Source: a virus. Taken from it: DNA of 64,000 nucleotides. This document shows, piece after piece, positions 6,912 through 35,573 of this stretch (within the stretch, counting starts at the first letter, position 1; every line of letters begins with the position of its first letter). Made by a program: the position numbers and the translations under genes. The stretch lies in the IMG/VR virus record IMGVR_UViG_3300045988_183789. One strand, written 5' to 3'. The notes under the pieces are model-generated. The model ran no database searches and was not told where the DNA came from. It saw nothing but the letters and a program-made list of their open reading frames with translations.

Positions 6912-6975
6912 CGACAGCCTCCGCGCGGCGCGTAGTGGTTAGTGCCCGTATCCTGCTATCGGGCAGCGAATGTCG
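6912..6975 (+). other. Structured-element family copy 1 (AGACAGCCTCC-core element)
   Basis: Core CGACAGCCTCCGCGCGGCG is closed by the CGACA ... TGTCG helix. Compare copies at 32972, 35504, 62632, 62962, 63630 and 63899. Confidence 0.45.
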
Positions 6976-7011
6976 ATAACATACTACATCCCTACAAAGG
7001 AGACCAATACC

Positions 7012-8172
7012 ATGAACGAGAACGAAATGCTGAACCCCACCACCGTCGAGACCGACGAGGTGACCACCCCTATTGCCCCTGCGGAGGAGGCTATGGAAAA
7101 CGCTCAGAGCGTTGCTCCTGCCGCCGAGCCTGCTGAGGAAAAAGACCCTGTCGAGGCCGTTCCCGCCCCGGCTGACGACGTAGAGGACGAGGACGATGTC
7201 CCTGAAGCTCCCCGTGCTTCTCGCCGCTTCAATGACGACGATTTGCAGATTGGTGCCTTCGTTGACGATGGCAACGATATGCTGAAAGTCGATATGCCTG
7301 AAGACCGCCGCGCCCGTGACCTCGCAGAGATGCGCCGCTGTGTGGCTGACAACAAGCGCAGCCCCCGCCGCTTCCTGCAGGGCAAGGTTTTCGGTGTCCG
7401 TCCTGTCGGTAACGGCAGCGCGGTCGTTGAAGTTACCCGTGGTACGCTGCGCGTGATGATTCAGGCCGAAGACTTCTTCCATTTCTCTCAGATGAAGGGC
7501 ATCGAGAACGATGATGAAGCCACTCGTCAGCGCCGTTTCCTGCGCAAAGCCAAATTGATGAACGGCGCTATCATCAACTTCTGCCCCTATCTGGAAGCCG
7601 AGTCTGAGGACGGCGAGGTTGTCTTCGCAGGCTCCCGCCAGGACGCTATGCAGCTCCAGCGCAATCGTCACTTCTTCGGCCGCAACGCCGATGTCAAGGA
7701 AGGCACCCGCGCCGCAGCATCTATCCTGTCTACCGGTCCCGACTACGTCATTGCTGAGGCCCTGGGCGTAGAGACCAGCATCGGTGCTGCTGCTCTGTCT
7801 GCCTATGAGTACATTGACAACGTGGCCGACAAGTTCCATGTTGGCGAAGGCATTCCTGTGGTCATCGAAGACCTGAACGTAGATGCCGAGAATGGCACTG
7901 TGAGCCTGCGCATGAACCGCGCCATCCTGGAGCGTCGTGCAAATCCCGCCATGAACATCCACAGCCTGGCGCGTGGTGGTGCTTATGGCGCAACTGTCAC
8001 GTCTGTCAATGAGCGCTTCTACCGCCTCATCGTGGATGTCGGCAACATCCAGGCCCGCGTTGCCTTGACTTCTTCTGACGAGTTGTTGACTCGTGGCGAC
8101 CGTGTTACGCTGCTGGTCTACGGCTACGACGATAAGCGCAACTACGTCTGGGGCGCTTGCCACAAGGTCTAA
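7012..8172 (+). CDS. Hypothetical protein, acidic N-terminal region
   Basis: RBS AAGGAG lies 9 nt upstream of ATG 7012. About 386 aa. No recognised motif. Confidence 0.5.
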   Translation: MNENEMLNPTTVETDEVTTPIAPAEEAMENAQSVAPAAEPAEEKDPVEAVPAPADDVEDEDDVPEAPRASRRFNDDDLQIGAFVDDGNDMLKVDMPEDRRARDLAEMRRCVADNKRSPRRFLQGKVFGVRPVGNGSAVVEVTRGTLRVMIQAEDFFHFSQMKGIENDDEATRQRRFLRKAKLMNGAIINFCPYLEAESEDGEVVFAGSRQDAMQLQRNRHFFGRNADVKEGTRAAASILSTGPDYVIAEALGVETSIGAAALSAYEYIDNVADKFHVGEGIPVVIEDLNVDAENGTVSLRMNRAILERRANPAMNIHSLARGGAYGATVTSVNERFYRLIVDVGNIQARVALTSSDELLTRGDRVTLLVYGYDDKRNYVWGACHKV

Positions 8173-8311
8173 TCCATGCCGACTGTCTGCTGCTTTCCCG
8201 GTGGACAGCCGGTTGCCATGCAAGATACCTGCCTTCTCGTGGCGCATGGTGAGCAACTGCATAACCGCAGGCCGATGGTATCAGAATACAGATTTTATGT
8301 GATTGGGGTGA

Positions 8312-8659
8312 ATGTTTGTGTGTCAAAATCACGGCGTTCGTTCGGGACTGTTCTTTTCGCAGCTTGAAAGCAGAGACGTGTTCGTTTCCTGTACTGTACG
8401 AAACAATGCGGTGGAGCTGACTGTCTCTGCTTTTCTCGAATTGAATGATGTGGATATGTCTGTCATTGAAACGTCATGCAGGGAGAACAAAGCCTTTGTG
8501 TCATTGGATGTAAGTGGAAATGGCGTTGTTGCAAGCGTAAAAGAATCTGCGCTGCTTTTGTCTGAGTTGGATAAAAACAAAGAGCTTGCTGTAAGTCTCT
8601 TCCGCCAGTGCTGCACTGTGATGCTTGCAATCATCCCGGAAGGGGAGGGCAACCAGTAA
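8312..8659 (+). CDS. Hypothetical small protein
   Basis: 115-aa ORF in the same operon. ATG follows GGGGTG. Confidence 0.4.
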   Translation: MFVCQNHGVRSGLFFSQLESRDVFVSCTVRNNAVELTVSAFLELNDVDMSVIETSCRENKAFVSLDVSGNGVVASVKESALLLSELDKNKELAVSLFRQCCTVMLAIIPEGEGNQ

Positions 8660-9789
8660 TGAACAAAGAAGAAAAGCAGCCAAATGTTTACATGATTCCG
8701 AAGAACTCGTTTGATACCGGTTACGTTTTTGGTGGTGCGTTCAAAACCAAGAACTTCTTCGAAGGCGTAGTTGTAGCGATTCCGTTCCTTGGAATCTTTA
8801 TTTACGGGTGGACACAACTCGGCTGGGATGTGGAGTCTACCGTAGCCTATGCCGCAATCGTGTGTGCCGGAGTATTCGTAGCGGTATCGCACGGCGTAGG
8901 TGATGACAGCTTCTTTGAGTTCTTGGCTCATGTAATTCATTTCCGCAAAAGTCGTAGAATTTCCAAGTACAATCCGCGTATTAAAACAGAGCTCGAGCCC
9001 GACTACCTACTGAAAGAAAGCGGTATGCTCCCGAAGGAAAAACTGAAAGAAGCATGGGAGAACTTCAAGAAGAAGGTCCTTGGCGGAAGTGATGGGCCAA
9101 TTAGCGCAGACATTACTGCTGATGATTTGCAGATTTACTACGATGACGATGAGGACTTCGTAGAAAAGCCTGATGAACTCAAAACGAAAGCAGAACTCAA
9201 AGCAGAAGCAAAGCAACGCGCAAAGGAAGAAAAGGCATATATCAATTCTTTGCCGCGCAACCAGCGCCGTGCTGCGCGTGCCGCCTTGAAACAAAAGCAT
9301 AAGGAAGAGGCCGAAGCCAAGAAACGTCAAGAAGAAGAACACGAGAAGATGGTGCAGGAGCGTATCAAGCGTCGTATTGAAAAGGCAGAACGTGTTAAGG
9401 CCGCCCAGTATCGTGCTAAGTTGGTCGCTATGCAGCAGATGCAGCAACAGACTGACCCCAACTATACCGCCACTCAATCCGAAGAACAGACGATGGATGT
9501 TGTGCTGGATGAAGTTGAAGCTGTTACCGAGACTCCTGATTTGAGTCTTGACGATGTGACGCTGCTGGATGACATGGCCTCCGCCGAGCCTGAAGAAATT
9601 GACGTCAGCTTTGATGAGGAAGCAACAGCTCACAATGGTCCGTTCGTACCGCGCATTATTACGAATGAGCGCATGAAGAACCAGGTCGGGCCAGTTGTTC
9701 GCCCTCTGAAAGCCAAGCCTCAAATCTATAACAGCCACAATGGAGACTTCTCCGCAGATTCGTTTTCTATCTTTGACGACGAGGAGTAA
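8659..9789 (+). CDS. Membrane protein with a long K/E-rich coiled-coil tail. Possibly the VirB3/PrgI-like T4SS component that precedes VirB4
   Basis: Strong RBS GGGGAGGG. Two TM helices near the N-terminus, then a ~250-aa charged coiled-coil region. Sits immediately upstream of the VirB4-like gene. Confidence 0.4.
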   Translation: MNKEEKQPNVYMIPKNSFDTGYVFGGAFKTKNFFEGVVVAIPFLGIFIYGWTQLGWDVESTVAYAAIVCAGVFVAVSHGVGDDSFFEFLAHVIHFRKSRRISKYNPRIKTELEPDYLLKESGMLPKEKLKEAWENFKKKVLGGSDGPISADITADDLQIYYDDDEDFVEKPDELKTKAELKAEAKQRAKEEKAYINSLPRNQRRAARAALKQKHKEEAEAKKRQEEEHEKMVQERIKRRIEKAERVKAAQYRAKLVAMQQMQQQTDPNYTATQSEEQTMDVVLDEVEAVTETPDLSLDDVTLLDDMASAEPEEIDVSFDEEATAHNGPFVPRIITNERMKNQVGPVVRPLKAKPQIYNSHNGDFSADSFSIFDDEE

Positions 9790-9798
9790 CAAAGCGAT

Positions 9799-12507
9799 AT
9801 GTTTAGAAAGAAAAATAAGCAGCAAGCTGTTCCGAATGGCGTTGTCGGTGACAGCCTGGAGAGCGTTCGTCTGACAAAGAAAGAACGCGAAGAAATTGCC
9901 AACGCCGAACGTAAGCGTATCGACAAAGAGATGCAGGCCAATGCGGACCGTTATCAAATCGTCCGCAGTACACAGCGCATTATCCCTGTTCAAGACATTT
10001 ATAACGGTGTCATTATTACAAAAGACCACCGTTATGTGAAGATTCTTGAGTTTCGGCCCATCAACTTCGGTTACATGGATGCCGAGACACAGAACCGCAT
10101 CATCTCACTCTTCTATCAGACTTTCAAGGCTGTTCCGGTCAACATCCAGTTCAAGACCTTTGCCCGTAAAGCAGATGTCGAGAAGACGATTGCTACAGTC
10201 ACTTCCTATTATCGGGAAGAGACAAACATCAAGCGCAAGCGGATGCTGAAAGCTTACATCGGCCTGCTTCGTAAGACGGCTTTGTCCGTTGGTATTACGC
10301 GCCGTTTCTTTATCATCATTGAGTTTCAGCGTACCATCAGCAATGACGGCTCTAACTTTGATATGGTGGTTGCGGACCTTAATGCAATGGCGGCTAACGT
10401 ACGCTCCCACATGGAACAGTGCGGCAATATCTTCATCCCGGCTCTGGGCGACAGCAGCCGTAATGAAGATGCCGGTATACACCAGCTGTTCTATCAGATG
10501 CTGAACCGTCGCAAGAGTGAGACGATTACGTTCCACGACCACGTTACGCCCATCATTGAACGCTATACCGAAGCGGATAAGAACGGCGTAAAGACCTCTC
10601 TGAATGCCACGGAATTGATTGCGCCAGACTGGATTGATTTTACCCATTATGACTATATTGTCATTGATGGCAAGTTCTACACCTTTGCCTACATTCCATC
10701 TACTGGATATAATCAGCGGGTGTACGCTGGTTGGATTGCTACTTTCGTAAACGCTGGCGAAGGCGTAGATATGGATGTGTTCTTTGAGCATCAATCCCGT
10801 GAAGCGGTTTACAACAAAATCAGTACCCAGCTTCGTTTGAGCCGCGCTAATGCTATGGAAAGCCATGATACAGACTCCGACTACCATGCTCGTATGGAGA
10901 AAATTTCTTCCAGCGAATATATGTTGAAAGGCTTGTCCAGCGGCGAAGAATTTTATTATATGAGCATCCTCATCACCATTGTTGGTGATAGCTTGGACGA
11001 GTTGGAATACAAGTATAACTCCCTTGAAAAGCGCGTCAAAGGCCAGGGAATGAAGATTCGTCGTGCAAACTTTATGATGGAAGAGTGCTTTGAGTCTGCG
11101 TTGCTGCCTCTGGGTAAGCTCCATAAGGACATCAAGCGCCGGGCACAGCGCAACGTGCTGACCTCTGGTGTGGCATCTTGCTATCCCTTCATTTCCTTTG
11201 AAATGCAGGACCCTGACGGCGTTATGATTGGTACAAACCGCGCCAACAACTCCCTTGTCACTATCGACATGTTCGACACGGATGTTCACGCCAACGCAAA
11301 CGCTGTTATCCTTGGTTCTTCCGGTTATGGTAAGACCTTCACCGCACAGCTTTTTGCATTGCGTCTGTCTGAAATGGATACGCAAGTGTTCGTTATCTCT
11401 CCGCTGAAAGGCTTGGAAGACTACGGCGGCGGATGCAAGGCGGTTGACGGCCAGTTCATCAGTATGGACCCGTCTTCCATCAATAGCATCAACATCATGG
11501 ATATCCGCGTGCCGGACGATGCGGACGCCAAGGAGCTGGACGACTACGAGTCTACTGGTTCTCTGCTGACCAAGAAGATTCACACCATCAAGTCCTTCCT
11601 GCATTTGGTCGTTAAGGATATGACACAGGAAGAGGAACAGCTTATTGATACAAGTCTTTACAGATGCTATAAGGACTTCGGCATCACCAATGATAACGAA
11701 TCGATTCTCGATAAAGAACACGGCGGTTATAAAAAGATGCCTCTGCTGGAAGACCTCCAGAAAGAGATGCAGAATGTTCCTGAACTTCATCGTATCTGCA
11801 ACATCCTGAACCCGCTGATTACCGGTTCAATGGCGTGTTATAATCGCCCTACCAATGTTGACCTGAAAGCCAAATACATTGTATTTGACTTCAACGGCAT
11901 GAAGGGCGCTATCCTTACGATGTCGATGTTTGTTGTTCTGGACTTCGTCTGGACCAAAATCAAAGAAGACCGTACAAAGCGCAAGGCCGTATTTATCGAC
12001 GAGTGCTGGAAGCTGATTGGCACCGACTCAAACGAGATGGCGGCAGAGGACGTTGTGGAAATCTTCCGTACAATTCGTGCTTACGGTGGCTCGGCTTTCG
12101 CTATGACGCAGGACATTTCTCAGTTCTATGAGTATAAGGGCGGCAAGTATGGTAAGGCAATCATCGGTAACGCTGACACCAAAATCATCATGCACCTTAT
12201 CCCGTCTGAAGCGCAGGCATTGCAGTCTGCCATTCAGTTGACTGATGCGGAGATGGAAAACGTCTCCAACTTGCAGCGTGGTCAAGGTCTGGTCTGTGCC
12301 GCTTCTGCCAAGCTGTTCGTTGACTTTGTTGCTGCACCTTATGAAAAGCAGGAAATCACGACAGATGCAAAGAGCTTCTATCTGCAAGAGAAAGCCCTCA
12401 AAGAGAAACAGCACAAAGAAGAGCAGGAGCGCCTGGCGGCTGAAAACGCCAAAGGTGGGTCTGACTCTAACAGCGATGACGAGGATTTGCTGAATGTGAC
12501 ATTCTGA
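9799..12507 (+). CDS. VirB4/TraE/PrgJ-family T4SS ATPase
   Basis: About 900 aa. Walker A ILGSSGYGKTF and Walker B AVFIDECWKL. The size and position after a VirB3-like gene are typical. Confidence 0.85.
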   Translation: MFRKKNKQQAVPNGVVGDSLESVRLTKKEREEIANAERKRIDKEMQANADRYQIVRSTQRIIPVQDIYNGVIITKDHRYVKILEFRPINFGYMDAETQNRIISLFYQTFKAVPVNIQFKTFARKADVEKTIATVTSYYREETNIKRKRMLKAYIGLLRKTALSVGITRRFFIIIEFQRTISNDGSNFDMVVADLNAMAANVRSHMEQCGNIFIPALGDSSRNEDAGIHQLFYQMLNRRKSETITFHDHVTPIIERYTEADKNGVKTSLNATELIAPDWIDFTHYDYIVIDGKFYTFAYIPSTGYNQRVYAGWIATFVNAGEGVDMDVFFEHQSREAVYNKISTQLRLSRANAMESHDTDSDYHARMEKISSSEYMLKGLSSGEEFYYMSILITIVGDSLDELEYKYNSLEKRVKGQGMKIRRANFMMEECFESALLPLGKLHKDIKRRAQRNVLTSGVASCYPFISFEMQDPDGVMIGTNRANNSLVTIDMFDTDVHANANAVILGSSGYGKTFTAQLFALRLSEMDTQVFVISPLKGLEDYGGGCKAVDGQFISMDPSSINSINIMDIRVPDDADAKELDDYESTGSLLTKKIHTIKSFLHLVVKDMTQEEEQLIDTSLYRCYKDFGITNDNESILDKEHGGYKKMPLLEDLQKEMQNVPELHRICNILNPLITGSMACYNRPTNVDLKAKYIVFDFNGMKGAILTMSMFVVLDFVWTKIKEDRTKRKAVFIDECWKLIGTDSNEMAAEDVVEIFRTIRAYGGSAFAMTQDISQFYEYKGGKYGKAIIGNADTKIIMHLIPSEAQALQSAIQLTDAEMENVSNLQRGQGLVCAASAKLFVDFVAAPYEKQEITTDAKSFYLQEKALKEKQHKEEQERLAAENAKGGSDSNSDDEDLLNVTF

Positions 12508-12548
12508 ACTGCAAAATCAAACGATACTCCGTTAATACTAACTGAAAA

Positions 12549-12622
12549 CAGCACTTTTGAGATATGCAATGGCCCGGTACAAATAAAACGTGCTGCTTTT
12601 GTGTATCTCAAAAGTGCTTTTC
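12549..12622 (+). terminator. Large hairpin terminator after the VirB4 gene
   Basis: Inverted repeat CAGCACTTTTGAGATA ... TATCTCAAAAGTGCT followed by TTTT. Confidence 0.6.
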
Positions 12623-12754
12623 CTTTTTGTCAAACCTTAAATTGCACATTTCTGAAAGTGCCGCATTTGAACGCTGCTATGCGTAAGTTGGCACTCAATC
12701 TAATGCGAAATATGACAAATACACATTTTGCCAATACTGAAAGGAGACATTCTT

Positions 12755-13345
12755 ATGTCTGAGATTCACAACACCGACATCCGCGAACTGCTTGATTCCA
12801 TTCCGGTTATCCCTAACACGCTGATGGAAGAATATCTGACCCGTCGGTATGAAATTACACCCAACAAGGCCCGCGAAATCATCTACAACGCTTGCCGCAA
12901 AGGTTCAAACCGCCGTCCTGCTTGCTACGCGACCAATGACGGACTTGCCAAAGCCGATTACATTACTATGACGAGCCTGTATCGTAAGCGTTGCCGTGCG
13001 TTCCGTGTTGCTTGCGAGTTTCTGCCGGAGAGCCGTCGATTTTCGATTCCCGCCACCAGTCCTTGGTTGCTGAGTTTTTGCTTTGATAGCAGCGTCTATT
13101 ATGTCTGTGAGTTTGAAAAAGGCAAGGAGCTCATTACGGCTGATATGATTCGCAACGCCGGTATTCGCGAAGATATGATGTCCGTTACCTCTCGAATCGC
13201 TATTCTGCGCCCTGGCACAAAGCGTGAGCTGTTGGATGGCTGCGGAATCCGCTTTTTCTGCACGGTTGACGATGATTACAACCTCGATGTGACCGAGCAG
13301 GTTCCTGACGAGGAGGTTTGGAATGGCGTTCCCATCGTTGATTGA
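12755..13345 (+). CDS. Hypothetical protein
   Basis: RBS AAAGGAGA lies 7 nt upstream of ATG 12755. Confidence 0.45.
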   Translation: MSEIHNTDIRELLDSIPVIPNTLMEEYLTRRYEITPNKAREIIYNACRKGSNRRPACYATNDGLAKADYITMTSLYRKRCRAFRVACEFLPESRRFSIPATSPWLLSFCFDSSVYYVCEFEKGKELITADMIRNAGIREDMMSVTSRIAILRPGTKRELLDGCGIRFFCTVDDDYNLDVTEQVPDEEVWNGVPIVD

Positions 13346-14096: not shown

Positions 14097-14264
14097 CTCG
14101 GATACAACAATTTTGGGGACTGCAAAATACAACATTATCAGGATGCTGTTTTTATGCCCCTTAAATTGTTGTATCCTTTCATTGTTTTTGGGCACAGTAA
14201 TAGACTTTCGGCGTATCAGGTGGTACGCTATCGTGTTTCTTATATACAAATATTAGGTGACAAA

Positions 14265-17382: not shown

Positions 17383-18141
17383 ATGACCACGAACTTTGAG
17401 AACACCTATCAGGCATTCATGCACTGTGACGTAGACAAGCTGGCTGCGGAGTTTGCAGCTATGTATCACAGTGGCGGCGAGGAGCGTGACCGGCTCGCAG
17501 ATGCTAAGGAAGAGGTCAATGCTGCATTCATGCGCATGAAGACGCTCCCCCTGAAAGTAGAGCCGGAGCAGAAACTGCTCTTCGTTTGCAAGGGCTTTGG
17601 TGACGTGGGAGATGACACCGTCTGCATCGAAGCCAGTGACCTCCGTGCCTGGAAAGAGAAGCACACGAAAGTATCTGAAGCTGAAGCCATCAGCGATGAG
17701 ATGCTTACCTTTATGAGCACCGATGACATCATGGCGGCCGTAATGAAGCAGGACCTGCCGACTCAGTACGCTTTTGAATTTTGCAGCTGGGAAGAGATTC
17801 TCAGCTGGAAGCTGGCACCGTCCAGTATCTATATCTACGGCCTTGAGTGGTGCCTTTCCCGCGTGTTGTGGGAAATGACCTTTTTTGGCATCGAACCTGA
17901 AGGTATGGAGAACGCCAAAGCTGAAATCGACGCGAACCTTGAGGAAGCAAAGAAAGACCTTGCTGAAAACGGCGAACCCAGCAAATGCATTCCGTTCGAG
18001 GAAGTCGTAAAGAAGCTGCTGGGCGACGACTATACAGAAGACTGGTATCCCGAAGAAGAGCAGGAGAGAGACCGGCGGAATATGGCGATTGCGGCCTACA
18101 AGGGAAATCATGAAGCAGAGAGGCTGCTCGCGATGCTGTGA
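17383..18141 (+). CDS. Hypothetical acidic protein
   Basis: 252 aa, strongly acidic C-terminus. RBS GGAAAGG. Confidence 0.5.
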   Translation: MTTNFENTYQAFMHCDVDKLAAEFAAMYHSGGEERDRLADAKEEVNAAFMRMKTLPLKVEPEQKLLFVCKGFGDVGDDTVCIEASDLRAWKEKHTKVSEAEAISDEMLTFMSTDDIMAAVMKQDLPTQYAFEFCSWEEILSWKLAPSSIYIYGLEWCLSRVLWEMTFFGIEPEGMENAKAEIDANLEEAKKDLAENGEPSKCIPFEEVVKKLLGDDYTEDWYPEEEQERDRRNMAIAAYKGNHEAERLLAML

Positions 18142-18199
18142 GGTGCCCTATAATTCATCCAGAACAAAATTAACCCGGAGCAGAAAGGAGATGATAGAG

Positions 18200-18988
18200 A
18201 TGCTTATTCATATTTTTGGCGATACACATGGACCGGATGAGATTTTCAAAATCAATCCGAAACGGTTCCTTAACCGTGACATCACAAAAGATGATGCGAT
18301 TGTTGTTTGCGGAGACTTCGGATTTCCGTTCTTTCCGACAGACCGCATCCCGGCGGACGACCTCAAGACACTGGACATGCCGCAACACTGTATCAAGTCA
18401 GCGCGAGCGTACCAGATGTACACCGACTGGATGAAGTCTTTTCCTTGCAATATCCTCTTCATCGATGGTAACCACGATAACCACACCTTCTGGGCAGAGC
18501 AGCCTACTGAACGGTGGAACGGCGGCTTGATTCAACGCCTGCCGGAAGCACCGAATGTCATCCACCTGATGCGCGGCGAATACTACACGATTGATGGTAT
18601 GACTGTATGGTGTATGGGAGGTGCAGAGTCTATCGATAAAGCATACCGTACAGAAGGCGTCACTTGGTGGAGGGAAGAAGTCCCATCTCAGAAAGAGATG
18701 TGGCACGGTCTTGACGCATTGGATGAGCATGGGAATAAAGTAGACATCATCATGACGCACATGCTTCCACAGATGCTCATGCCAATCTATTTCAGAGACA
18801 TCAGCCCGATTCACGACCCGACTGGCGTATACCTTGATGAAATTTACCGCCGGGTGAAGTTTAAACAATGGTGTTGCGGCCACATGCACCAAGACATCGA
18901 TAAATCGATGTACAAGCTCAGAGTGCTGTACAACCAGATTGCGGAAATAAACACGGACGACTTTGGGAAAGAAGGTGATAACCAATGA
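18200..18988 (+). CDS. Calcineurin-like metallophosphoesterase
   Basis: RBS AAAGGAGA. Motifs HIFGDTHG and GNHDNH. Confidence 0.7.
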   Translation: MLIHIFGDTHGPDEIFKINPKRFLNRDITKDDAIVVCGDFGFPFFPTDRIPADDLKTLDMPQHCIKSARAYQMYTDWMKSFPCNILFIDGNHDNHTFWAEQPTERWNGGLIQRLPEAPNVIHLMRGEYYTIDGMTVWCMGGAESIDKAYRTEGVTWWREEVPSQKEMWHGLDALDEHGNKVDIIMTHMLPQMLMPIYFRDISPIHDPTGVYLDEIYRRVKFKQWCCGHMHQDIDKSMYKLRVLYNQIAEINTDDFGKEGDNQ

Positions 18989-19827
18989 GCGACATCTATG
19001 TGGCAGGAGATGTGCATGGGAACTACAAAGGTCTCATCGAATCCCTCATGGCCGCCGGATGGAATGAAGGAACCGACAAGCTCGTCTTCGTTGGTGATGT
19101 AGTAGACCGTGGCAAGGAAAACGCAAAGGTCGTCAACTTCATTACGGAACATCCAGATACAGTCCATCTCGTTCTTGGCAACCACGAATACGAACATAGG
19201 CAGATGCTTCGATACTATAAAGCACTCGCACAGTCTCCGACCGTCAGAAAGCTCGCAGCCTGGGTCTTCCTACACTACAAGCAAGGAGAGCACATCTTCA
19301 GAACAAAAGAAGAACTCGAAACGCTCAGATGCAGCATGGAGGAAAGAAAAAAGATTCTCGCCGCTAGACCCCATACGTTCGCTGGGTGGCAGAAGCTTTT
19401 TATTACCTACACACTCGCGTGGGAGAACGATGGGCTTTGGCAGATGGTCGTCTATCTGCTCGACAATATGTGTGGCACACCGTACGAAGCAGAACATACC
19501 ATCTATGAGTATCTGTCTGGTACGAAAAAAACGAGGGAAAGCTTTGAAACTACCTTTGAGAATCAAGCACAGGAACTCAACATCACGCCTCCGCCCGGTT
19601 CTCGATTCAAACAAATCGTGGTAACTCACAACAACCCGTTCGGTCGAGTCTTTGATTATGATAAAGACGAAATGTTGACCGGTCATCGGGATACGCTCTA
19701 TATTTTTGGACATATCCCTCATAAAGAAATCACTCGCATGGACAGACCCAACTCCGGTTGCACATACCTCGACATTGATACATCTCCATACGGAGTATCC
19801 GTCATTAAGCTGTCTAACTATCTCTAA
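18985..19827 (+). CDS. Metallophosphoesterase (PPP/ApaH-like)
   Basis: Motifs GDVHGN, GDVVDRG and GNHE. Confidence 0.7.
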   Translation: MSDIYVAGDVHGNYKGLIESLMAAGWNEGTDKLVFVGDVVDRGKENAKVVNFITEHPDTVHLVLGNHEYEHRQMLRYYKALAQSPTVRKLAAWVFLHYKQGEHIFRTKEELETLRCSMEERKKILAARPHTFAGWQKLFITYTLAWENDGLWQMVVYLLDNMCGTPYEAEHTIYEYLSGTKKTRESFETTFENQAQELNITPPPGSRFKQIVVTHNNPFGRVFDYDKDEMLTGHRDTLYIFGHIPHKEITRMDRPNSGCTYLDIDTSPYGVSVIKLSNYL

Positions 19828-27274: not shown

Positions 27275-27277
27275 TCC

Positions 27278-27881: not shown

Positions 27882-27887
27882 ATAAGG

Positions 27888-28283: not shown

Positions 28284-28413
28284 CTTTCATTGCTATTCTG
28301 TAATGCTGATTTTAATTATACGGAATTGCGCTAATTCGTCAATATCGTCACTTTATTTGTGAGCGGAATTGACAAAAAATGATAAATTGTCCAATTGACA
28401 GAAAGGAGCCTGT

Positions 28414-28938: not shown

Positions 28939-29097
28939 CAGCAGCCGCCAGAATTTTGGAGGCTTTTTGTATATAGCGGTTTACATTTTTATAGAAAATA
29001 TCTCTTTATAGAGTGACCCCACAAAGAAAGGAGGCAGGGACTCGGCCGACCACCACGAACTTGGAAGAAACACAAATAAAGAAAGGACCTGTAAAAG

Positions 29098-29487
29098 ATG
29101 ACGGAAATGAACATGAACGGATACGATTATCTCTTTACCAGCAAGGAAGGCCAGGAAGCACTCAAGGGGCTCCAGCGTTACGGCGTGAACGACCTGACTC
29201 CGTATGAGGACTGGCAGCTTGAGTTTTATCTTGACAATCCTCTGCCGTGGCCCAGATGCTGCGAACTGTTTGGGCAGTACGCCAAATACATCGCAACCCA
29301 TGATGAAATGCCGTTCGATGCTTGGCTCGCAACAATTGAGTATGACCCAGCGTTGAGTGACGGTGAGAGGGAAGACTTCGACTATTCTGAATATGACAAG
29401 GACCCCCTTGTCATCAACTTCTCTGTGGGGCAGCGCCTCGACAGGGGAGAGAATTTCGATGGAGACCCGGAAGTTCTCGAATGCTGA
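29098..29487 (+). CDS. Hypothetical acidic protein
   Basis: 129-aa ORF. Confidence 0.4.
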   Translation: MTEMNMNGYDYLFTSKEGQEALKGLQRYGVNDLTPYEDWQLEFYLDNPLPWPRCCELFGQYAKYIATHDEMPFDAWLATIEYDPALSDGEREDFDYSEYDKDPLVINFSVGQRLDRGENFDGDPEVLEC

Positions 29488-29493
29488 AAAGGT

Positions 29494-29907
29494 TCAGGTA
29501 TCCAGCATAAGATAATAGTCGCCTACCAAGACATCACCAACCTGCATGGTTGTGTTCTTGTCAGGCTCAATATGATGCGCCTGGCAGAATGCCTGCATCT
29601 CAGGTGTCAGAACAGACTGTATCACAATCCTGGGAACGCCGACCTCGGTGCATATCTTCTTCAGTTCTTCCAGAACAGAAGTCATCGTACCACGACGCTT
29701 ATGAGTAAAGCCAACGCGGGACACGACAAGCTCGAAATCACCCAGAAAAGAGACTCGCAGCTCATTGAGTTCATCATCCGATGTAATCCATACAGTGCCA
29801 AACGATACATCCGCCTGGCACTTGCAGTTTTGCTTTGACTCTATGATAGCTTGAAGCCGTTCAATCTGCTCGTTTGAAAGACACAGTCTCTGCATTGAGG
29901 TTTGCAT
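29494..29907 (-). CDS. Possible GNAT-fold acetyltransferase
   Basis: Motif-A-like HKRRGTMTSVLEEL. Confidence 0.3.
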   Translation of the reverse strand: MQTSMQRLCLSNEQIERLQAIIESKQNCKCQADVSFGTVWITSDDELNELRVSFLGDFELVVSRVGFTHKRRGTMTSVLEELKKICTEVGVPRIVIQSVLTPEMQAFCQAHHIEPDKNTTMQVGDVLVGDYYLMLDT

Positions 29908-30046
29908 TACACATCATTCCTCTCATTTTCTATACCCATTATACCATATCATAATAAATCTTGACAGTGTGTGATGAATTGTTTACAAACACTTCACTGT
30001 CCCAAAAGAAAACGCAAAACCAGCAACATATAATAAGAAGCATTAA

Positions 30047-30075
30047 GCTCGACCCAAAGCGGTCGGGCTTTTTTG
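30047..30075 (+). terminator. Rho-independent terminator
   Basis: GCTCGACC-CAAAGC-GGTCGGGC followed by TTTTTTG. Confidence 0.6.
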
Positions 30076-30104
30076 TTGCCAAAACGTGCGAATTGGCAAC
30101 AATA
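30076..30104 (+). promoter_or_regulatory. GCGAATTG-box promoter, copy i
   Basis: TTGCCA aaacGTGCGAATTGgca ACAATA. Confidence 0.5.
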
Positions 30105-30165
30105 TCCATTGCAATGGTTGTCACATTATAACTTTTTCGCAAAATATCAGCAAAGGTGTGATACA

Positions 30166-30600
30166 GTGACAGACGCAAAAAGAATCACAAGCTTATCGGC
30201 TGCCATTTTGCTCGCCGCGCAGTTGTTTACTCCTTTCATACCGGCGGCTTACGCAGATGATAAGAATGGACAGAATACAACATCAATTGCGACCTCCGAA
30301 ACAGCAATGCAAAGCAGCCTTGAAGAAGACAAAGAAGCAGACATCAAACTTGAAAGCGAGGACGGCTCGGCTGCCGATTTCTTTGCTTGCATCAATGGTG
30401 ACTTGGCAAAGGTGAGCAGTACCACAGACCTGCAAGGACCCGAACACCTGGCTGGCCGGGAACGCTACTATCTAACGGCTGAACAGCTGGAAAGCGTCTA
30501 CGCACCGTTTGGCTTTGCTGCCGAGACATGTAGAAGAAAATGCAGAGAACGTAAATCAGGATGTACTCGCAGCCTACAAAAAAGATGCTGGAGCTTATAA
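30166..30600 (+). CDS. Secreted hypothetical protein
   Basis: RBS AAAGGTG with a GTG start. The signal-like N-terminus ends in AAYADD. Confidence 0.4.
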   Translation: MTDAKRITSLSAAILLAAQLFTPFIPAAYADDKNGQNTTSIATSETAMQSSLEEDKEADIKLESEDGSAADFFACINGDLAKVSSTTDLQGPEHLAGRERYYLTAEQLESVYAPFGFAAETCRRKCRERKSGCTRSLQKRCWSL

Positions 30601-30964
30601 GGTGTTGGCACTGACGACCTGTGCCTCGGACTACTCCAATGCCAGAACCGTCATCATTACTCTGCTTCAGGAATGAGTTAAAGTTAAAAGTGTATCTCAT
30701 TTGATTTTGTATACCACATGTGGTATAATACAATATAGAGGGCAAGGACAAAGACCCGACGGTGCTGTCGATGACAGCCATGCAAACCGGGGCAGGGTAC
30801 AGTGCCTGAGTTCTCACAACATTTGCCGTCCCTCTCCGACGGTTCTATCTGCTTTCATGCAGTCACCTCGTTCCTTACATCCTTTCTTTATCCTTTCTTA
30901 CGGACCCCGCTGCTTTTCCCCGCAAAGAGCAGCGGGGATTCTTTTTGCTTATCGAAATAATGTC

Positions 30965-30992
30965 TTGTGCATTTGTGCGAATTGCGTAGAAT
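30965..30992 (+). promoter_or_regulatory. GCGAATTG-box promoter, copy a
   Basis: TTGTGC atttGTGCGAATTGcg TAGAAT, then TTAGAATTGTAC. Confidence 0.5.
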
Positions 30993-31235
30993 TAGAATTG
31001 TACAAGCGGAATTGGGTTCCGGCGGGTCTTAACCTCTTCCTGCCGGTGTGTACGACGTGGTTTCCTCTCACTTTGACATGTTTGCTTTCCGCTTGTATTC
31101 ACCCCATCGGCTTTTTCCTGGGCCGGTGGTTCATATAAAAGGCTGTGGTTGCTTTTGCTTCCGCAGCTTTTTTGTTTGTATTCGCGCCTGCACAAAAGAC
31201 AGGCATTGGTTGTGATGAGCGAAAGGAGTATGAAT

Positions 31236-32927
31236 ATGGCGCTTATCATCGGGATTGTAGCAGTCCTTATTATCATCTTCGGCTTTCTGTGCTACAAGAA
31301 GGCCCCTCCGACGGAGGCTATCGTCGTGACCGGCTTTGGGTTGTCAAAGCCCAAAGTAGTATCCGGTAAAGGCACGTTTGTGCTTCCTGTCTTGCAACGA
31401 GCAGACAAACTGAACATGCGGCTTCTGAAGATTGATGTCAAGACCCCAGAAACAGGCGTTAAGACTCAGAATGGTGTCAGCCTTTGGATTGATTCTGTTG
31501 TGACGATTCAGGTTTACAGTGAGAACTCCACTGTGTTGGACGATGAGGTCAAAGCATCTGGTCTGAAGGACGCCAAGGCGTATATCATGTCCCGCCAGCA
31601 GGCAGCTATCTCGAACTTCTTGGGCATGAACGAGCAGGGCATCAACGACAAGGTCAATGACGTTCTGCAGGGCAACCTGCGTGAGATTGTTTCCGACATG
31701 ACCGTTGACCAGATTCTGACAAACCGCAAGCAGATGGCACTGAGCGTCATTGAGAACGCTCGTCCAGACCTCGCCAAGATGGGCCTTGAGGTCGTGACCT
31801 TCAATGTTCAAGACATTAGGGACGCGATTGATGCACAGGGCCACAATCACGGTGTCATCGAAGCTATCGGTATCGAGCAGGAAGAACTGGTGAAGAAGCA
31901 GGCTGAGATTGCTCGTGCCCAGGCTGCTCGCGATGTGGCATGTGCAAAAGCAGATGCTGAGATGGCAGCGAACGCCAAGGAAGTTGAAGCCCAGACCGCT
32001 ATCGCACAGCGCAACAACGAGTTGCAGCTTGCCAAGGCAAAGCTGAAGGCAGAAGCTGACAAGGCTGCGGCCGACGCAGATGCTGCCGGTCGTATCCAGA
32101 TGAACCTCCGTGCCAAGGAAATCAAAGAAGCTGAGGCTGACGCAGAGATTGCCAAGCAGAAGAAGATGGTTGACCTTGCTGCGCAGGAAGCCGAAGTCCA
32201 GCAGCGTAAACTGGACGCAGAAGTCCGTAAACAGGCTGATGCAGACCTTTATCGCCGTCAGGAAGAAGCAGAAGCCAAAAAATACGAGGCGGAGCGTGCA
32301 GCCGAAGCACAAAAGTTCGCTAAGCAGCAGGAAGCAGAAGGCATCGAGATGGTCGGTAAGGCTGAGGCTGAAGCCATTCGCCAGAAAGGTCTGGCTGAGG
32401 CAGAGGCTATGAAGCAGAAAGCCGAAGCCTACAAACAGTACAACGACGCAGCTGTTGCCGAAATGCTTATCAAGGTTCTGCCTGACATCGCCAAGAGCGT
32501 GGCCCAGCCCCTGTCCAGCATCGACAAGGTGTCTATCATCGGTGGTGATGCTTCCGGCGTATCCGGTGTGTCTGGTAACGTCCCGGTGCTCATGGCCCAG
32601 ACCATGCAGACGGTGAAGGAGGCAACCGGTATCGACATGGGTGAGATTGTTCGTGCCAATAGCATCCAGGCTAAGACGGACCGCAACATCCATATCGATG
32701 GTGTGGAGTTGGACGAGCCAAAATCTCACATCACCTCCGAGCGTGTCGAAGATGGTTGGATGTTCCATGAGAAGGACCCTATCACCGGCGAAGATAAAAC
32801 TTCTTTCCGTCCCGATTTTACGGACGAGGAAAAGGCCATCATGGATGCTCACGCCAAGGCAGCTGAGAAGCATGCTACCACCAACAAAACCAATCCGTAT
32901 AAAAAGAAGACGGGCCCCAACAAATAA
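31236..32927 (+). CDS. Flotillin-like SPFH/band-7 protein
   Basis: RBS AAAGGAG. N-terminal TM helix, SPFH core, long Ala/Glu/Lys-rich coiled coil. Confidence 0.75.
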   Translation: MALIIGIVAVLIIIFGFLCYKKAPPTEAIVVTGFGLSKPKVVSGKGTFVLPVLQRADKLNMRLLKIDVKTPETGVKTQNGVSLWIDSVVTIQVYSENSTVLDDEVKASGLKDAKAYIMSRQQAAISNFLGMNEQGINDKVNDVLQGNLREIVSDMTVDQILTNRKQMALSVIENARPDLAKMGLEVVTFNVQDIRDAIDAQGHNHGVIEAIGIEQEELVKKQAEIARAQAARDVACAKADAEMAANAKEVEAQTAIAQRNNELQLAKAKLKAEADKAAADADAAGRIQMNLRAKEIKEAEADAEIAKQKKMVDLAAQEAEVQQRKLDAEVRKQADADLYRRQEEAEAKKYEAERAAEAQKFAKQQEAEGIEMVGKAEAEAIRQKGLAEAEAMKQKAEAYKQYNDAAVAEMLIKVLPDIAKSVAQPLSSIDKVSIIGGDASGVSGVSGNVPVLMAQTMQTVKEATGIDMGEIVRANSIQAKTDRNIHIDGVELDEPKSHITSERVEDGWMFHEKDPITGEDKTSFRPDFTDEEKAIMDAHAKAAEKHATTNKTNPYKKKTGPNK

Positions 32928-32971
32928 TTGAGGTTCATCACACAGCCCATTGAGGGCTGCTGCCGCTCAAC

Positions 32972-33032
32972 GAAGACAGCCTCCACGGGGCAAGCGGCGG
33001 GCAACGGGAAAGGCTCCTGGCAAATAGTCTTC
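32972..33032 (+). other. Structured-element family copy 2
   Basis: GAAGACAGCCTCCACGGGGCAAGCGGCGGGCAAC ... GGCAAATAGTCTTC. The closing helix is GAAGAC / GTCTTC. Confidence 0.45.
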
Positions 33033-33058
33033 AGAACGAAAAAGAAGGGGAGAAAGCC

Positions 33059-33451
33059 ATGAAAACACAACAGGTCCCAAACTCTCCCTATTTCATCTGC
33101 TATGACGAAAACGGCTTTTTCTGTGTATCCAAAGATAAGGATGGAAAAGAACCTATTTCTGCCTTTGAGACACAAGCATTTCTCGATGCAGTAGCCAATG
33201 GACTACTCTATATCGAGAAAGAACGAAAGAACAGATACCAGCGTATTGACGAAGCCCAAAAAGCCGCTTTTGCCAAAGGTGAAGCGGAAGGCAAAGAAAA
33301 CAAGCTCATCGCCACAGTCAAGGAACTGAAGGAGGAGCAAGCATTGAGGGAAGAGCAAGAGCGCAAATGGGCCTACGAAGCGTATACTCATACTCCGTAT
33401 TACAGCGGGACAAGGACAGAGTGGGTTCGCTTATCTCGTGGAGGATGGTGA
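33059..33451 (+). CDS. Hypothetical protein
   Basis: RBS AAGGGGAGAAAG. Confidence 0.45.
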   Translation: MKTQQVPNSPYFICYDENGFFCVSKDKDGKEPISAFETQAFLDAVANGLLYIEKERKNRYQRIDEAQKAAFAKGEAEGKENKLIATVKELKEEQALREEQERKWAYEAYTHTPYYSGTRTEWVRLSRGGW

Positions 33452-33456
33452 GTAAC

Positions 33457-33711
33457 ATGATGGGAAGTATCCCAATCCCAAATACAAGATTTTATCTGAC
33501 AAGCATCGATGGTAAAAAATGGTTCATAACGGAGTATTATAGGACCGTGCCTTTTAATCCTGAAAAAGATACTTACGACTTGTACAAAGCGTTTGCGGAA
33601 GCCTTCCGAGAAAACGAGAATGAAGAACGGGAATTTCCTGAGAAACTCAAAGAAGCCGAAAAAGAAGCCTGTGGTAGAGGCTTGCACGCCGGACGGTATA
33701 GTCATTTGTAG
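33457..33711 (+). CDS. Hypothetical small protein
   Basis: RBS GGAGGATGGTGAG. Confidence 0.4.
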   Translation: MMGSIPIPNTRFYLTSIDGKKWFITEYYRTVPFNPEKDTYDLYKAFAEAFRENENEEREFPEKLKEAEKEACGRGLHAGRYSHL

Positions 33712-33797
33712 ATACCCGCGAGTTTGAGCGAAGACAGACCAGGGCGGGAGCAATACGATGGCTTCTATGCTTGGTATGCAGCACACGGGAGATAACT

Positions 33798-34373
33798 ATG
33801 AAAAAGAAAACGAAAGCCATTATGCAGATACTTCTTATGTTGGTGATGGCGGTACTGTTTGCATTCGTACCGATTTCCTACATGCAGCAGGTTATCAGAA
33901 CGAACCTGGCTACGGTTGAGCCTTCTCAATTGGAGCAGTATGAGAAAAAATCCATTGCGCTGGATTCGGAAGACTATAACATTGTATCCAACATCATCAT
34001 GTGGGAACGGCATCAGGCCGCAAGTGATGAGCCGTCCGGCGACTACGTAACAGCCTTCTACCCGATAAAGGTATACACCAAAAGTGGTGATGATTATATC
34101 ATCGCGGCCGAGTTTGATGATAGCGAAAAAGGCTCCTATATCTATAGCCATGCTCCTATTAAAGGCAATATCCTGGCAGTACCGGCAGAACACCTGGAGG
34201 AATATCAGGAAGCAATTGGAGACATGAACGCATATCCGTACTATATCAGCGTAGACAGCAGCTCCGACGCCGAGAATTTTTGGGCATCGTTTCTGTGCGG
34301 ATTTCTTTCACTGCTGTCTGCAACAAGCGCAGTTCTGCTAATCAAAATGCAAATGGAGGGGGCAAACAACTAA
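33798..34373 (+). CDS. Membrane-anchored hypothetical protein
   Basis: RBS GGGAGA. N-terminal TM segment. Confidence 0.45.
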   Translation: MKKKTKAIMQILLMLVMAVLFAFVPISYMQQVIRTNLATVEPSQLEQYEKKSIALDSEDYNIVSNIIMWERHQAASDEPSGDYVTAFYPIKVYTKSGDDYIIAAEFDDSEKGSYIYSHAPIKGNILAVPAEHLEEYQEAIGDMNAYPYYISVDSSSDAENFWASFLCGFLSLLSATSAVLLIKMQMEGANN

Positions 34374-34903
34374 TGGGGTGGTATCACGTAAACAACACCG
34401 GGAAAGGCATTACCCTTGGAGACGGTGAGGAAGTCCATTACAACGAGGACTTTCTGGCGAGATATGTTCCGACTAAAGAAGAAGTTCTTGCCTTAGTGCC
34501 GTCTTTCAAAAACGAAGACCTCGAAGGGTATGAAGCCTGGCCGCTGGGCATGAAATTCGTTGCGGCAGCCGGTGATTGGTATAATCTGCACCGGGCTAAG
34601 GACTACGGAAGTGACTGCTTGAAGGAAGAAGCCCATATCATCTATGCAAGCGCCCTGTGTCACATTTTTGAAAAGTGTTACGGCTATCCCTCCGGGAGCT
34701 TTTTCAGTACGTTTGATTACGATGGCAACACGATGGTTTTCTGCGCCATTGATTGGCCGCCGAAAGAGTATAACGAAAAGCTCGCCACTCTGACCGAGAA
34801 GAAGCTCGAAGCGGAATTGCAAGAATTTCTGGTCAATGTTACGGGTGATGAGAGTTATGCAGAACGCAAACTGGAGTTTTGCGAGGAGTACATCAAGGAA
34901 TGA
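34373..34903 (+). CDS. Hypothetical protein
   Basis: ATG overlaps the upstream TAA (TAATG). RBS GGAGGGGG. Confidence 0.45.
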   Translation: MGWYHVNNTGKGITLGDGEEVHYNEDFLARYVPTKEEVLALVPSFKNEDLEGYEAWPLGMKFVAAAGDWYNLHRAKDYGSDCLKEEAHIIYASALCHIFEKCYGYPSGSFFSTFDYDGNTMVFCAIDWPPKEYNEKLATLTEKKLEAELQEFLVNVTGDESYAERKLEFCEEYIKE

Positions 34904-35475
34904 AACGGATAGAACCTAATATCATTGAAACCAGCTACTATACTCTCGTATCTGCCAATGAAGGGGTAGGGAAGACGTTCTGGTGTAAGCGTCAGATTGC
35001 CAAGGTGCTGCGTACCATCTCAGACCGAATCATTGTCTTTGATGTGACAGGGGAGTACGCGGACTTTGTACTGGACCATGACCGTATCGTTCCGGGCCGC
35101 ATTCCGATGATTCTGCATCAATATAAGATTACGGACGATAAGCCCGTTGTGGCGCATACCATCGAAGTCGATATGGCGATGGGAAAGCAGCCCCAACTTA
35201 TTGTCCATGATGTGAGCCGAACTATGACCTACACATGGCATAAGGGGGTTCTTGCCATTACGGCATCACTCATTCACTATCTGGCCGGCAGGGAACACAC
35301 CAAGACCTGGCTATTTTTGAATCTTGACCCGTATTCCTTTGAGGATGAAAGCGAGCCGTCCTGGACGGTGCTCGAACGGTTTGTAAAGCAGCATGGGCAG
35401 GAGGTAAAGCCTGTATTTACATCTCGGAAACTCGGCGTGAAAGAAATCAATAGACGCCTAAACATCAAATCTTGA
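34900..35475 (+). CDS. Small P-loop NTPase
   Basis: Walker A SANEGVGKT and Walker B RIIVFDVTGEY. Confidence 0.5.
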   Translation: MKRIEPNIIETSYYTLVSANEGVGKTFWCKRQIAKVLRTISDRIIVFDVTGEYADFVLDHDRIVPGRIPMILHQYKITDDKPVVAHTIEVDMAMGKQPQLIVHDVSRTMTYTWHKGVLAITASLIHYLAGREHTKTWLFLNLDPYSFEDESEPSWTVLERFVKQHGQEVKPVFTSRKLGVKEINRRLNIKS

Positions 35476-35503
35476 GCGGGGTTCTCCCCGCAGCTGCCTT
35501 TAC

Positions 35504-35573
35504 GCAAAGAGGCCTCCACGAGGCGGGCAGCGGGCAACAGCTACGGCTGGCAGACAACTTTGCTTTCTAACAA
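35504..35573 (+). other. Structured-element family copy 3
   Basis: GCAAAGAGGCCTCCACGAGGCGGGCAGCGGGCAAC ... CTTTGC. The closing helix is GCAAAG / CTTTGC. Confidence 0.4.

Follow-up and report, generated by a model that had tools for sequence, protein, structure and literature searches.

What is the element of about 70 nucleotides (nt) that recurs between the genes of a 64,000-nt stretch of DNA filed as IMG/VR virus record IMGVR_UViG_3300045988_183789, and what could it do for the RNAs that carry it? The initial annotation of this stretch, which is called the window below and was analysed at its full length, had described three copies of a novel structured element, at 6912-6975, 32972-33032 and 35504-35573, with covariation in a closing helix. 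From its sequence, the repeat is almost certainly a hepatitis delta virus (HDV)-like, or delta-like, ribozyme for which self-cleavage is predicted. Nine copies (c1 to c9, starting at 1384, 6901, 8215, 32962, 35493, 62624, 62954, 63621 and 63891) lie in the window, all on the + strand. The repeat thus belongs to a known ribozyme class just below the Rfam thresholds and is no new RNA class or fold; its genomic context is unusual.

Identity and architecture of the repeat

The core GCCTCCNCGNGGC (at most one mismatch) occurs seven times in the window, on the + strand only, where 0.89 occurrences are expected; in 100 dinucleotide-preserving shuffles the count always stayed below seven. The repeat is real and far above chance, with selection on its structure. 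The three copies first described, the core quoted for them, the complementarity of their ends and the hairpins upstream of them are all present in the sequence. Since this core resembles that of the genomic HDV ribozyme (…CAGCCUCCUCGCUGGCG…GGGCAAC…GGCGAAUGGGAC), Rfam was run again with E-value thresholds. At gathering thresholds, the whole window yields only four transfer RNAs (tRNAs; Thr, Asn, Met and Asp, 62455-63260). With E-value thresholds, RF02682 (HDV-F-prausnitzii) aligned over its full length to eight of the nine sites, with 29-43 bits and local E-values of 5e-6 to 6e-3 (cut-off 44 bits). Four of these eight were also matched by RF00094 (HDV_ribozyme), and the ninth site, 1382-1460, was matched by RF00094 only (33.5 bits, cut-off 50). 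The aligned spans at the other sites were 6901-6977, 8213-8284, 32962-33033, 35493-35563, 62624-62695, 62954-63029, 63621-63687 and 63891-63972. The sole other model that touched the sites was drz-agam-1 (RF01787), itself HDV-like, with a chance-level match at 63615-63686 (15.4 bits, E 7.7), and the non-HDV Rfam families, including hammerhead, twister, pistol, T-box and riboswitches, gave no match at the nine sites in a search of the whole window at E <=10. HDV had not been among the families with which the element was first compared, and these full-length, sub-threshold alignments to HDV-type models essentially remove its claim to novelty. An RNA processing or stability element, one of the functions then listed, comes close to the explanation that we consider best.

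All nine copies are parsed by a Python descriptor made up of P1, J1/2, P2, P3, L3, P3', P1', P1.1, P4, J4/2 and P2', the nested double pseudoknot order of HDV-like ribozymes. In this fold P1 stacks with P1.1 and P4, and P2 on P3; the cut is made at the nucleotide with which P1 begins, and L3 and J4/2 make up the core (PMC4908430). P1 has 6-7 base pairs (bp), and its sequence is different in each copy while pairing is always kept. P3 reads RCC with GGY in P3', L3 reads U-Y-C-N-C-G-N, and P1.1 consists of two bases that pair with L3 positions 2-3, usually GG with the CC of L3. P4 is a hairpin of 4-8 bp in all nine copies, with an unconserved loop, and the fold holds no conserved extra domain. 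J4/2 reads G/A-C-N-A-A/G, with its cytosine present in nine of nine copies. The essential catalytic cytosine is placed at the first J4/2 position in PMC10879173; J4/2 is read here as G-C-N-A-A, so that the catalytic C follows a leading G, which may belong to P4.

This architecture changes the outline of the element. The true spans of the three copies first described are 6901-6977, 32962-33032 and 35493-35563, starting 10-11 nt further upstream, and the description had overlooked the 6-7 bp P1 in which an upstream segment pairs with the bases that directly follow GGC. What had been called the closing helix (CGACA/TGTCG, GAAGAC/GTCTTC and GCAAAG/CTTTGC) is real and covaries, as P2 of a double pseudoknot and not as a simple closing stem. 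Seven copies had been counted in all; those at 1384-1458 and 8215-8282 had been missed.

The MAFFT alignments of the nine copies (A1 and A2) put P1 wrongly in four rows. Consequently, the covariance model R1, which was built from A2, mis-registers P1 of c1, c4 and c5 (starts 1385, 32964 and 35497), and the descriptor and a second model, R2, were used instead. Scored at every window position, R1 gives 46-72 bits to the nine copies and 12.9 bits to the next best position. R2, built solely from other contigs, recovers eight of the nine window copies with correct 5' ends and misses c1 at E < 1e-3.

For pair counts, the eight window copies were aligned by R2. P1 was paired in 98% of cells, with six of its seven pairs changed on both sides. 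P3 was fully paired, with one pair changing from GC to AU (ACC/GGT in c9 against GCC/GGC), and so was the P1.1 pseudoknot, with one change from CG to UA (in c3, where L3 UUC pairs with GA). Over the whole structure 91% of cells were paired, compared with 33-50% when the 3' partners were slid by 1-3 columns; changes on both sides were found in 12 of 17 pairs, and none of 500 shuffles reached the observed score.

When IMG/VR was scanned with AGACAGCCTCCNCGNGGCG, 110 stretches were obtained, and in 770 kb of them the model then found 238 ribozymes; the viral-contig scan gave 98 distinct ribozyme copies. The best 150 of the 238 matches provided 53 distinct sequences, in which P1 was 99.5% paired with all seven pairs compensatory, 14 of 18 pairs were compensatory overall, and the first pair of P3 was GC in 41 and AU in 12. 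L3 U-C-C-N-C-G-N was invariant in this set, as were, in all 53 of 53, the J4/2 C and the A that stands three positions further on. P2 appeared only 72-78% paired in the model-based alignments, since its columns shift where J4/2 varies in length, and cognate and non-cognate strands were compared in place of those counts: cognate strands form on average 6.35 bp and non-cognate strands 3.73 bp, over 23 different P2 sequences.

Orthologous copies at the same gene junction, with flanking proteins 86-89% identical, exhibit compensatory differences in P1, P2 and P4. P1 of c2, ACTACGC/GCGTAGT, is replaced by ACCACAC/GTGTGGT in two related contigs (L001 and L002); c4 has GCCGCT/AGCGGC and its orthologue GCTGCTC/GAGCAGC; c5 has GCTGCCT/GGGCAGC and its orthologue ACTGTCT/GGACAGT (L057). 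The orthologues of c3 include three P1 and three P2 sequences, altered on both sides, with the P1.1 pairing UC/GA kept. Judged by sequence comparison, such compensatory changes are the strongest evidence for a selected structure, and they bear out the view of the initial annotation that the RNA fold is under selection: P1, P2, P3 and P1.1 covary among copies and orthologues. By score the element falls outside the curated families RF02682 and RF00094; it is HDV-like by every structural criterion tested.

Several points weigh against an active HDV-like ribozyme. None of the nine copies reaches an Rfam gathering threshold, the best being 43.0 against 44 bits (RF02682) and 33.5 against 50 (RF00094). 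In HDV a G at +1 forms a G-U wobble at the base of P1, which is not a strict requirement in descriptor searches; three window copies have an A instead of this G, and the wobble is present at the cleavage site in two only. The +1 pair is G-C in four, G-U in two and A-U in three window copies, and 50, 25 and 23, respectively, among the 98 distinct copies. P1 of c4 contains a C-A mismatch. In addition, c6 may have no J1/2 spacer if its P2 forms fully, and HDV-like ribozymes that lack this spacer are inactive (PMC4908430). The sub-threshold scores, the A at +1 and the mismatch in c4 would also suit a fold that is kept as an exonuclease-blocking 5' or 3' structure or as a protein-binding site, with cleavage weak or absent. 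However, the invariant positions are the catalytic ones (the J4/2 C, the U...C-G of L3 and the C-C of P1.1), which are not needed for pure structure, and the position of a stem-loop 0-4 nt ahead of the predicted cut is explicable only if the RNA is cut. We therefore regard a non-catalytic fold as very improbable.

Table 1 Ribozyme copies and upstream hairpins in the window. Scores are in bits; R1 and R2 are the covariance models described in the text, and L numbers denote related contigs.
Feature	Position	Strand	Structure	Scores and surroundings
c1 upstream stem-loop	1359..1382	+	Upstream 45 nt fold at -21.9 kcal/mol, z -5.1	Ends 1 nt before cut
c1 ribozyme	1384..1458	+	P1 GTCTTGC/GCAAGAC, P2 GTCAC/GTGAC, P3 ACC/GGT, L3 TCCACGTT, P1.1 CC/GG, P4 7 bp, J4/2 GCUGAGA	RF00094 33.5, R1 46.2; orthologues L001-L007 with compensatory P1 changes; between open reading frame 34-1344 and M23 peptidase gene (real start ATG 1488)
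Intrinsic-terminator-like hairpin and T-run	6841..6878	+	Hairpin 6841-6868	After VirD4 gene
c2 second stem-loop	6878..6899	+		Ends 1 nt before c2 cut
c2 ribozyme	6901..6977	+	P1 ACTACGC/GCGTAGT, P2 CGACA/TGTCG, P3 GCC/GGC, L3 TCCGCGC, P1.1 CC/GG, P4 6 bp, J4/2 GCGAA	RF02682 33, R1 56.7; ribosome-binding site AAGGAG, ATG 7012 34 nt downstream
c3 upstream stem-loop	8178..8213	+	-19.6 kcal/mol, z -4.1	Ends 1 nt before cut
c3 ribozyme	8215..8282	+	P1 GCCATGC/GCATGGT (G1-U wobble), P2 GATACC/GGTATC, L3 TTCTCGT, P1.1 UC/GA, P4 4 bp	RF02682 33, RF00094 33.4
c4 upstream stem-loop	32943..32959	+	CAGCCC-ATTGA-GGGCTG, without T-run	2 nt before cut; orthologue hairpin differs in sequence, same place
c4 ribozyme	32962..33032	+	P1 GCCGCT/AGCGGC (6 bp and C-A mismatch), P2 GAAGAC/GTCTTC, P3 GCC/GGC, L3 TCCACGG, P4 5 bp, J4/2 GCAAAUA	RF02682 43.0; ATG 33059 26 nt downstream
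c5 upstream stem-loop	35476..35491	+	GCGGGG-TTCT-CCCCGC, without T-run	1 nt before cut
c5 ribozyme	35493..35563	+	P1 GCTGCCT/GGGCAGC, P2 GCAAAG/CTTTGC, P3 GCC/GGC, L3 TCCACGA, P4 4 bp, J4/2 GCAGACAA	RF02682 35.9; ATG 35619 55 nt downstream
c6 ribozyme	62624..62696	+	P1 GTCACC/GGTGAC (6 bp), P2 up to ATAAGACA/TGTCTTAT, P4 6 bp, J4/2 GCAAA	RF02682 29, R1 66; ends 4 nt before tRNA-Asn (62701), cut 93 nt after tRNA-Thr
c7 ribozyme	62954..63030	+	P1 ATCCCTC/GAGGGAT, P2 CAAGACA/TGTCTTG, P4 6 bp, J4/2 GCCAA	RF02682 41.5, R1 71.9
c8 ribozyme	63621..63691	+	P1 GCCACCC/GGGTGGT (G1-U wobble), P2 GAGACA/TGTTCTC with one bulge, J4/2 ACGAA	RF02682 35, R1 65.9, R2 72.5; hairpin 63591-63620 upstream
c9 ribozyme	63891..63970	+	P1 ACTGCTC/GAGCAGT, P2 GAAGAC/GTCTTC, P3 ACC/GGT, P4 8 bp, J4/2 GCUAA	RF02682 42.3, RF00094 31.2; hairpin 63863-63889 upstream

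Placement at gene junctions and beside tRNAs

The nine copies all lie between genes, in the sense orientation. Copies c1 to c5 are followed by a ribosome-binding site and a start codon 26-55 nt after the ribozyme end, a shorter distance than the 40-60 nt first reported; c6 and c7 precede tRNAs by 4 and 44 nt, and c8 and c9 are located in a non-coding stretch after tRNA-Asp. Among the 98 distinct copies of the viral-contig scan, 70 do not adjoin a tRNA, and 52 of these 70 have a ribosome-binding site and an open reading frame (ORF) downstream, at a median distance of 30 nt. Eleven distinct copies in relatives have their predicted cut 0-2 nt after the 3' end of tRNA-Thr or tRNA-Gly (among them L010 1639-1714 on the - strand, L050 2158-2233, L077 608, L025 829-899 and L080 2075-2145), and another 17 stop 4-8 nt short of a tRNA 5' end. 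At c1, a mechanically called ORF (1392-3275) begins with an ATG at 1392, inside the ribozyme; in relatives this M23 peptidase begins with MAGFG, equivalent to ATG 1488 here, which has the ribosome-binding site AGGGAG ahead of it. Automatic annotation would probably hide c1 inside a gene.

The copies beside tRNAs recall the theta ribozymes, which are minimal HDV-like ribozymes without P4 from Caudoviricetes phages of the gut (Kienbeck et al. 2024, PMC10879173). In that report, theta copies at tRNA 3' ends are shown to self-cleave and are proposed to mature these ends. The ribozymes of the window could accordingly serve mainly in tRNA maturation, with the copies at protein genes being spill-over duplicates of little or no function. 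Four of the nine copies do lie in the tRNA region, and both the 11 copies of relatives with a predicted cut at tRNA 3' ends and the 17 that end just before tRNA 5' ends would fit such a role; those abutting tRNA 3' ends are full-size, P4-containing ribozymes in the theta-ribozyme arrangement. However, no cleavage site in the window is close to a tRNA 3' end, the distances being 93, 177, 360 and 630 nt as against the 5 nt at most that define the theta arrangement, and most of the distinct copies are not beside a tRNA at all. Moreover, c1 to c5 are kept at the same junctions in relatives with compensatory changes in their helices, which argues for selection on the mRNA-leader copies themselves. 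A role confined mainly to tRNA maturation is thus unlikely.

Positions in 5' leaders could also point to ribozymes that are regulated by a ligand or condition and switch the downstream genes, as glmS does or as in the reported modulation of the Faecalibacterium prausnitzii ribozyme by glucosamine-6-phosphate. The closest Rfam family is that of the F. prausnitzii ribozyme, and the variable P4 and J1/2 could house sensor elements. What speaks against such switches is that P4 is a plain hairpin, that no extra domain is conserved, that the downstream genes (M23 peptidase, unknown proteins, tRNAs) share no common theme, and that the same core is also found beside tRNAs. We consider regulated ribozymes decidedly improbable.

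A stem-loop precedes every window copy. It ends directly at the predicted cut in c8, 4 nt before it in c6 and 1-2 nt before it in the other seven. In 57 of 66 distinct upstream contexts, pairing extends to within 0-1 nt of the cut, compared with 27 of 66 control windows taken 60 nt further upstream, and the median folding energy is -15.4 kcal/mol compared with -8.6 in the controls. In orthologues the stem-loop changes in sequence and keeps its position, and where a ribozyme of a relative abuts a tRNA, the acceptor stem stands in for the upstream hairpin. The hairpins had been noticed before. One of them, at 6841-6868 with its T-run, is indeed terminator-like, and c2 is the only ribozyme with such a structure next to it; the others are plain stem-loops abutting the predicted cut. 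We found no sigma-70-like promoter between an upstream gene and its ribozyme in the window, and the ribozymes would therefore be transcribed within longer RNAs.

In the tRNA region, a perfect 38-bp tandem duplication (63002-63077) comprises the 3' half of c7 (P4 3' strand, J4/2 and P2 3' strand) and the spacer to tRNA-Met. As a result, tRNA-Met (63075) lies 44 nt from c7, compared with 6 nt in relatives without the duplication (in L008, ribozyme 1633-1709 and tRNA-Met at 1716), and c7 is left with two possible 3' halves. Between the 3' end of tRNA-Asn and the c7 cut lies a strongly structured spacer of 177 nt (62777-62953), which folds into two domains at -53.7 kcal/mol (z = -5.95 against 200 dinucleotide shuffles), the second of which closes 1 nt before the cut; its orthologues are nearly identical, with two one-sided changes that keep pairing. 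It may be a small RNA that is freed by tRNA processing on one side and by the ribozyme on the other. The stretches from tRNA-Asp to c8 (63261-63620) and from c8 to c9 (63692-63890) are non-coding, without a convincing ORF, and fold with z of -1.57 and -2.33; each ends in a hairpin at the next cleavage site.

The host element

Judging from its genes, we read the host DNA as a large conjugative, plasmid-like element of a gut Clostridiales bacterium. It encodes a VirD4-type coupling protein (4658-6829, 168 bits) and a VirB4-like ATPase (9799-12507), along with the M23 peptidase, a Y-family polymerase, a flotillin, two HNH proteins, a Mor-like regulator and two calcineurin-like phosphoesterases, all of them, like the tRNAs, on the + strand. 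No capsid, portal or tail match was found among the 30 window proteins scanned. Among genome records, the closest is a 224-kb contig from a Clostridiales metagenome-assembled genome of the human gut, and homologues at 86% identity are found in >1000 assembly blocks, on contigs of 200-400 kb with the same gene order, a type IV secretion system pilin gene and a RecD2-type helicase. Relatives are listed as viral in IMG/VR. A megablast of 20 kb of the window against deposited phages returned no match, and the phage matches of the tRNA and ribozyme region in blastn were confined to its tRNAs. An exact look-up of a window protein, and one of P0135, yielded no contig that would have extended the window. 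In the journals covered by the literature search, we found no description of this abundant gut element family.

The initial annotation had also listed a structured single-stranded DNA site (an ssi or single-stranded DNA promoter) for conjugative transfer and a new class of cis-regulatory or antitermination leader; the conjugative genes and the presence of all copies on one strand speak for these readings. The shared orientation follows from that of the flanking genes and tRNAs, which all lie on the same strand, so that transcription explains it. Every helix and conserved nucleotide maps onto an HDV-like ribozyme, the conserved positions being those of the RNA catalytic core, and sibling copies are placed to the nucleotide with respect to tRNA ends, which is a relationship at the level of RNA. 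We give almost no credence to either a DNA site or a new leader class. A role of the retrotransposon type, as in R2 or L1Tc, was rejected, as no reverse transcriptase was found near any copy among the proteins scanned.

Related contigs (L008-L117) carry arrays of 7-22 tRNA genes and a transfer-messenger RNA (tag DNNRYASPIAA) beside the ribozyme-rich region, for example in L072 (2787-13310), L084 (2837-10190) and L023 (956-7601). The flotillin (SPFH/Band 7) gene at 31149-32927 has homologues of about 80% identity in ordinary bacterial chromosomes, beside glycoside hydrolase and transporter genes (e.g. GCA_027682645.1), which suggests recent exchange with the host lineage and provides a clue to the host. 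No ribozyme was found at these host-chromosome flotillin loci (L120 and L121). The two calcineurin-like metallophosphoesterase genes are adjacent (18089-18988 and 18985-19827), and a nucleotidyltransferase-like gene (phrog_388) is located at 44380-45249. As a lead only, their products could heal the 2',3'-cyclic-phosphate ends left by the ribozymes. Theta-ribozyme phages are described as enriched in CCA-adding enzyme and RNA ligase (PMC10879173).

Proposed role and comparison with known systems

Cleavage and its effect on the fate of the RNA are inferred from the sequence, fold, covariation, conserved core, placement and abutting stem-loop. A long sense transcript would be made, in which every ribozyme would fold and cut at the first nucleotide of its own P1, that is, 5' of each of the nine starts given above. 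The upstream RNA would be left with a 2',3'-cyclic phosphate 0-4 nt past a stable stem-loop, a 3' end of a kind expected to resist 3' exonucleases, and the downstream RNA would start with a 5'-OH buried in P1 of a compact pseudoknot. After the ribozyme, an ORF would start 26-55 nt on, with its ribosome-binding site in between, or a tRNA would start 4-44 nt on. The ribozymes would in this manner act as enzyme-independent punctuation that parts cistrons, tRNAs and spacer RNAs and uncouples their stabilities. The upstream stem-loop would protect the new 3' end and stop the flank from mispairing with the ribozyme; in HDV itself, mispairing of upstream sequence with the ribozyme is reportedly prevented by a stem-loop, as is said of work by Chadalavada and colleagues in 2000. 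In the tRNA array, the unit of stem-loop and ribozyme would release precursors, and in relatives it would make tRNA 3' ends directly. Fail-safe 'torpedo' termination was rejected as an alternative, given that the ribozyme remains on the downstream fragment, where it would block a 5' exonuclease.

On balance, we lean towards transcript punctuation or processing as the role of these ribozymes; HDV-like identity and this role taken together, expressed as one compromise judgement, appear probable. Three observations count against the role. The terminator-like site before c2 means that this copy would be transcribed only by read-through. In Bacillus, the 5'-OH product of the glmS ribozyme is degraded by RNase J1, so that cleavage could destabilise the downstream mRNA, although that 5' end is not buried in a fold. 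Finally, distant relatives (L118 and L123-125) have no ribozyme after the flotillin gene, and individual copies are therefore dispensable.

A wider and more tentative possibility, to which we would not yet commit ourselves, is that conjugative elements of 200-400 kb in gut Clostridiales organise a one-strand transcriptome by punctuation with stem-loop, cut and ribozyme, without host RNases. The same units might also be used for maturing the 3' ends of tRNAs and for trimming their 5' leaders, and structured spacers, 62777-62953 among them, might be set free as stable small RNAs. If true, ribozyme punctuation would be a bacterial analogue of the tRNA punctuation of mitochondria.

The chemistry of HDV-like ribozymes is well characterised, but for the most part it is not settled what they do in bacteria and phages. 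Only 12 matches in bacterial genomes are given in the study by Kienbeck et al. (PMC10879173), which leaves copies not beside tRNAs as of 'unknown function'. The window and hundreds of related gut contigs offer a natural system for the role of such non-tRNA copies, and conserved junctions, with a stem-loop before and a ribosome-binding site or tRNA after each ribozyme, make that role directly testable. About a hundred natural variants of a compact, insulator-like unit of stem-loop and ribozyme could also be of use in synthetic biology. In a literature search that did not cover all journals, no paper came up that places HDV-like ribozymes on conjugative elements or plasmids, or directly 5' of tRNAs.

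The closest known family is RF02682. The copies share with it and with HDV the helix order, the nested double pseudoknot, the J4/2 G-C-N-A-A and P1.1 CC/GG, and L3 U-C-C-N-C-G-N is as in HDV. In c9 and many sibling copies, P1 (ACUGCUC or GCUGCUC with GAGCAGU or GAGCAGC) is close to the RF02682 consensus, and both the F. prausnitzii family and the present element have gut Clostridiales as hosts. In contrast, the scores fall 1-15 bits under the RF02682 cut-off. The F. prausnitzii ribozyme is said, from the work of Webb and colleagues in 2009, to be a single copy upstream of glmM, whereas here nine copies are spread over 64 kb of a plasmid-like, conjugative element, next to tRNAs and at the junctions of genes, and each has a stem-loop before it.

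Engineered insulators (RiboJ-type, and the tRNA array method, PMC12381190) follow the same proposed logic, in which the upstream RNA is detached and the downstream RNA receives a defined 5' end. They are synthetic, whereas the arrangement here is natural, with an effect that is presumed.

Like theta ribozymes, the present ribozymes are HDV-like, multi-copy, found in the gut microbiome and associated with tRNA arrays, and siblings have their predicted cut 0-2 nt after tRNA 3' ends; theta copies away from tRNAs are likewise intergenic, sense-oriented and of unknown function (PMC10879173). Unlike them, all nine window copies have a P4 of 4-8 bp and five are mRNA leaders. The two window copies that precede a tRNA 5' end, and the 4-8 nt spacing of the 17 siblings in that position, have no counterpart in the accessible part of the theta-ribozyme account (PMC10879173). 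As for the setting, the element encodes type IV secretion components and yielded no capsid, portal or tail match among 30 proteins, and its relatives are filed as viral in IMG/VR. With a P4, and with none of their cleavage sites next to a tRNA 3' end, the ribozymes of the window are not theta ribozymes.

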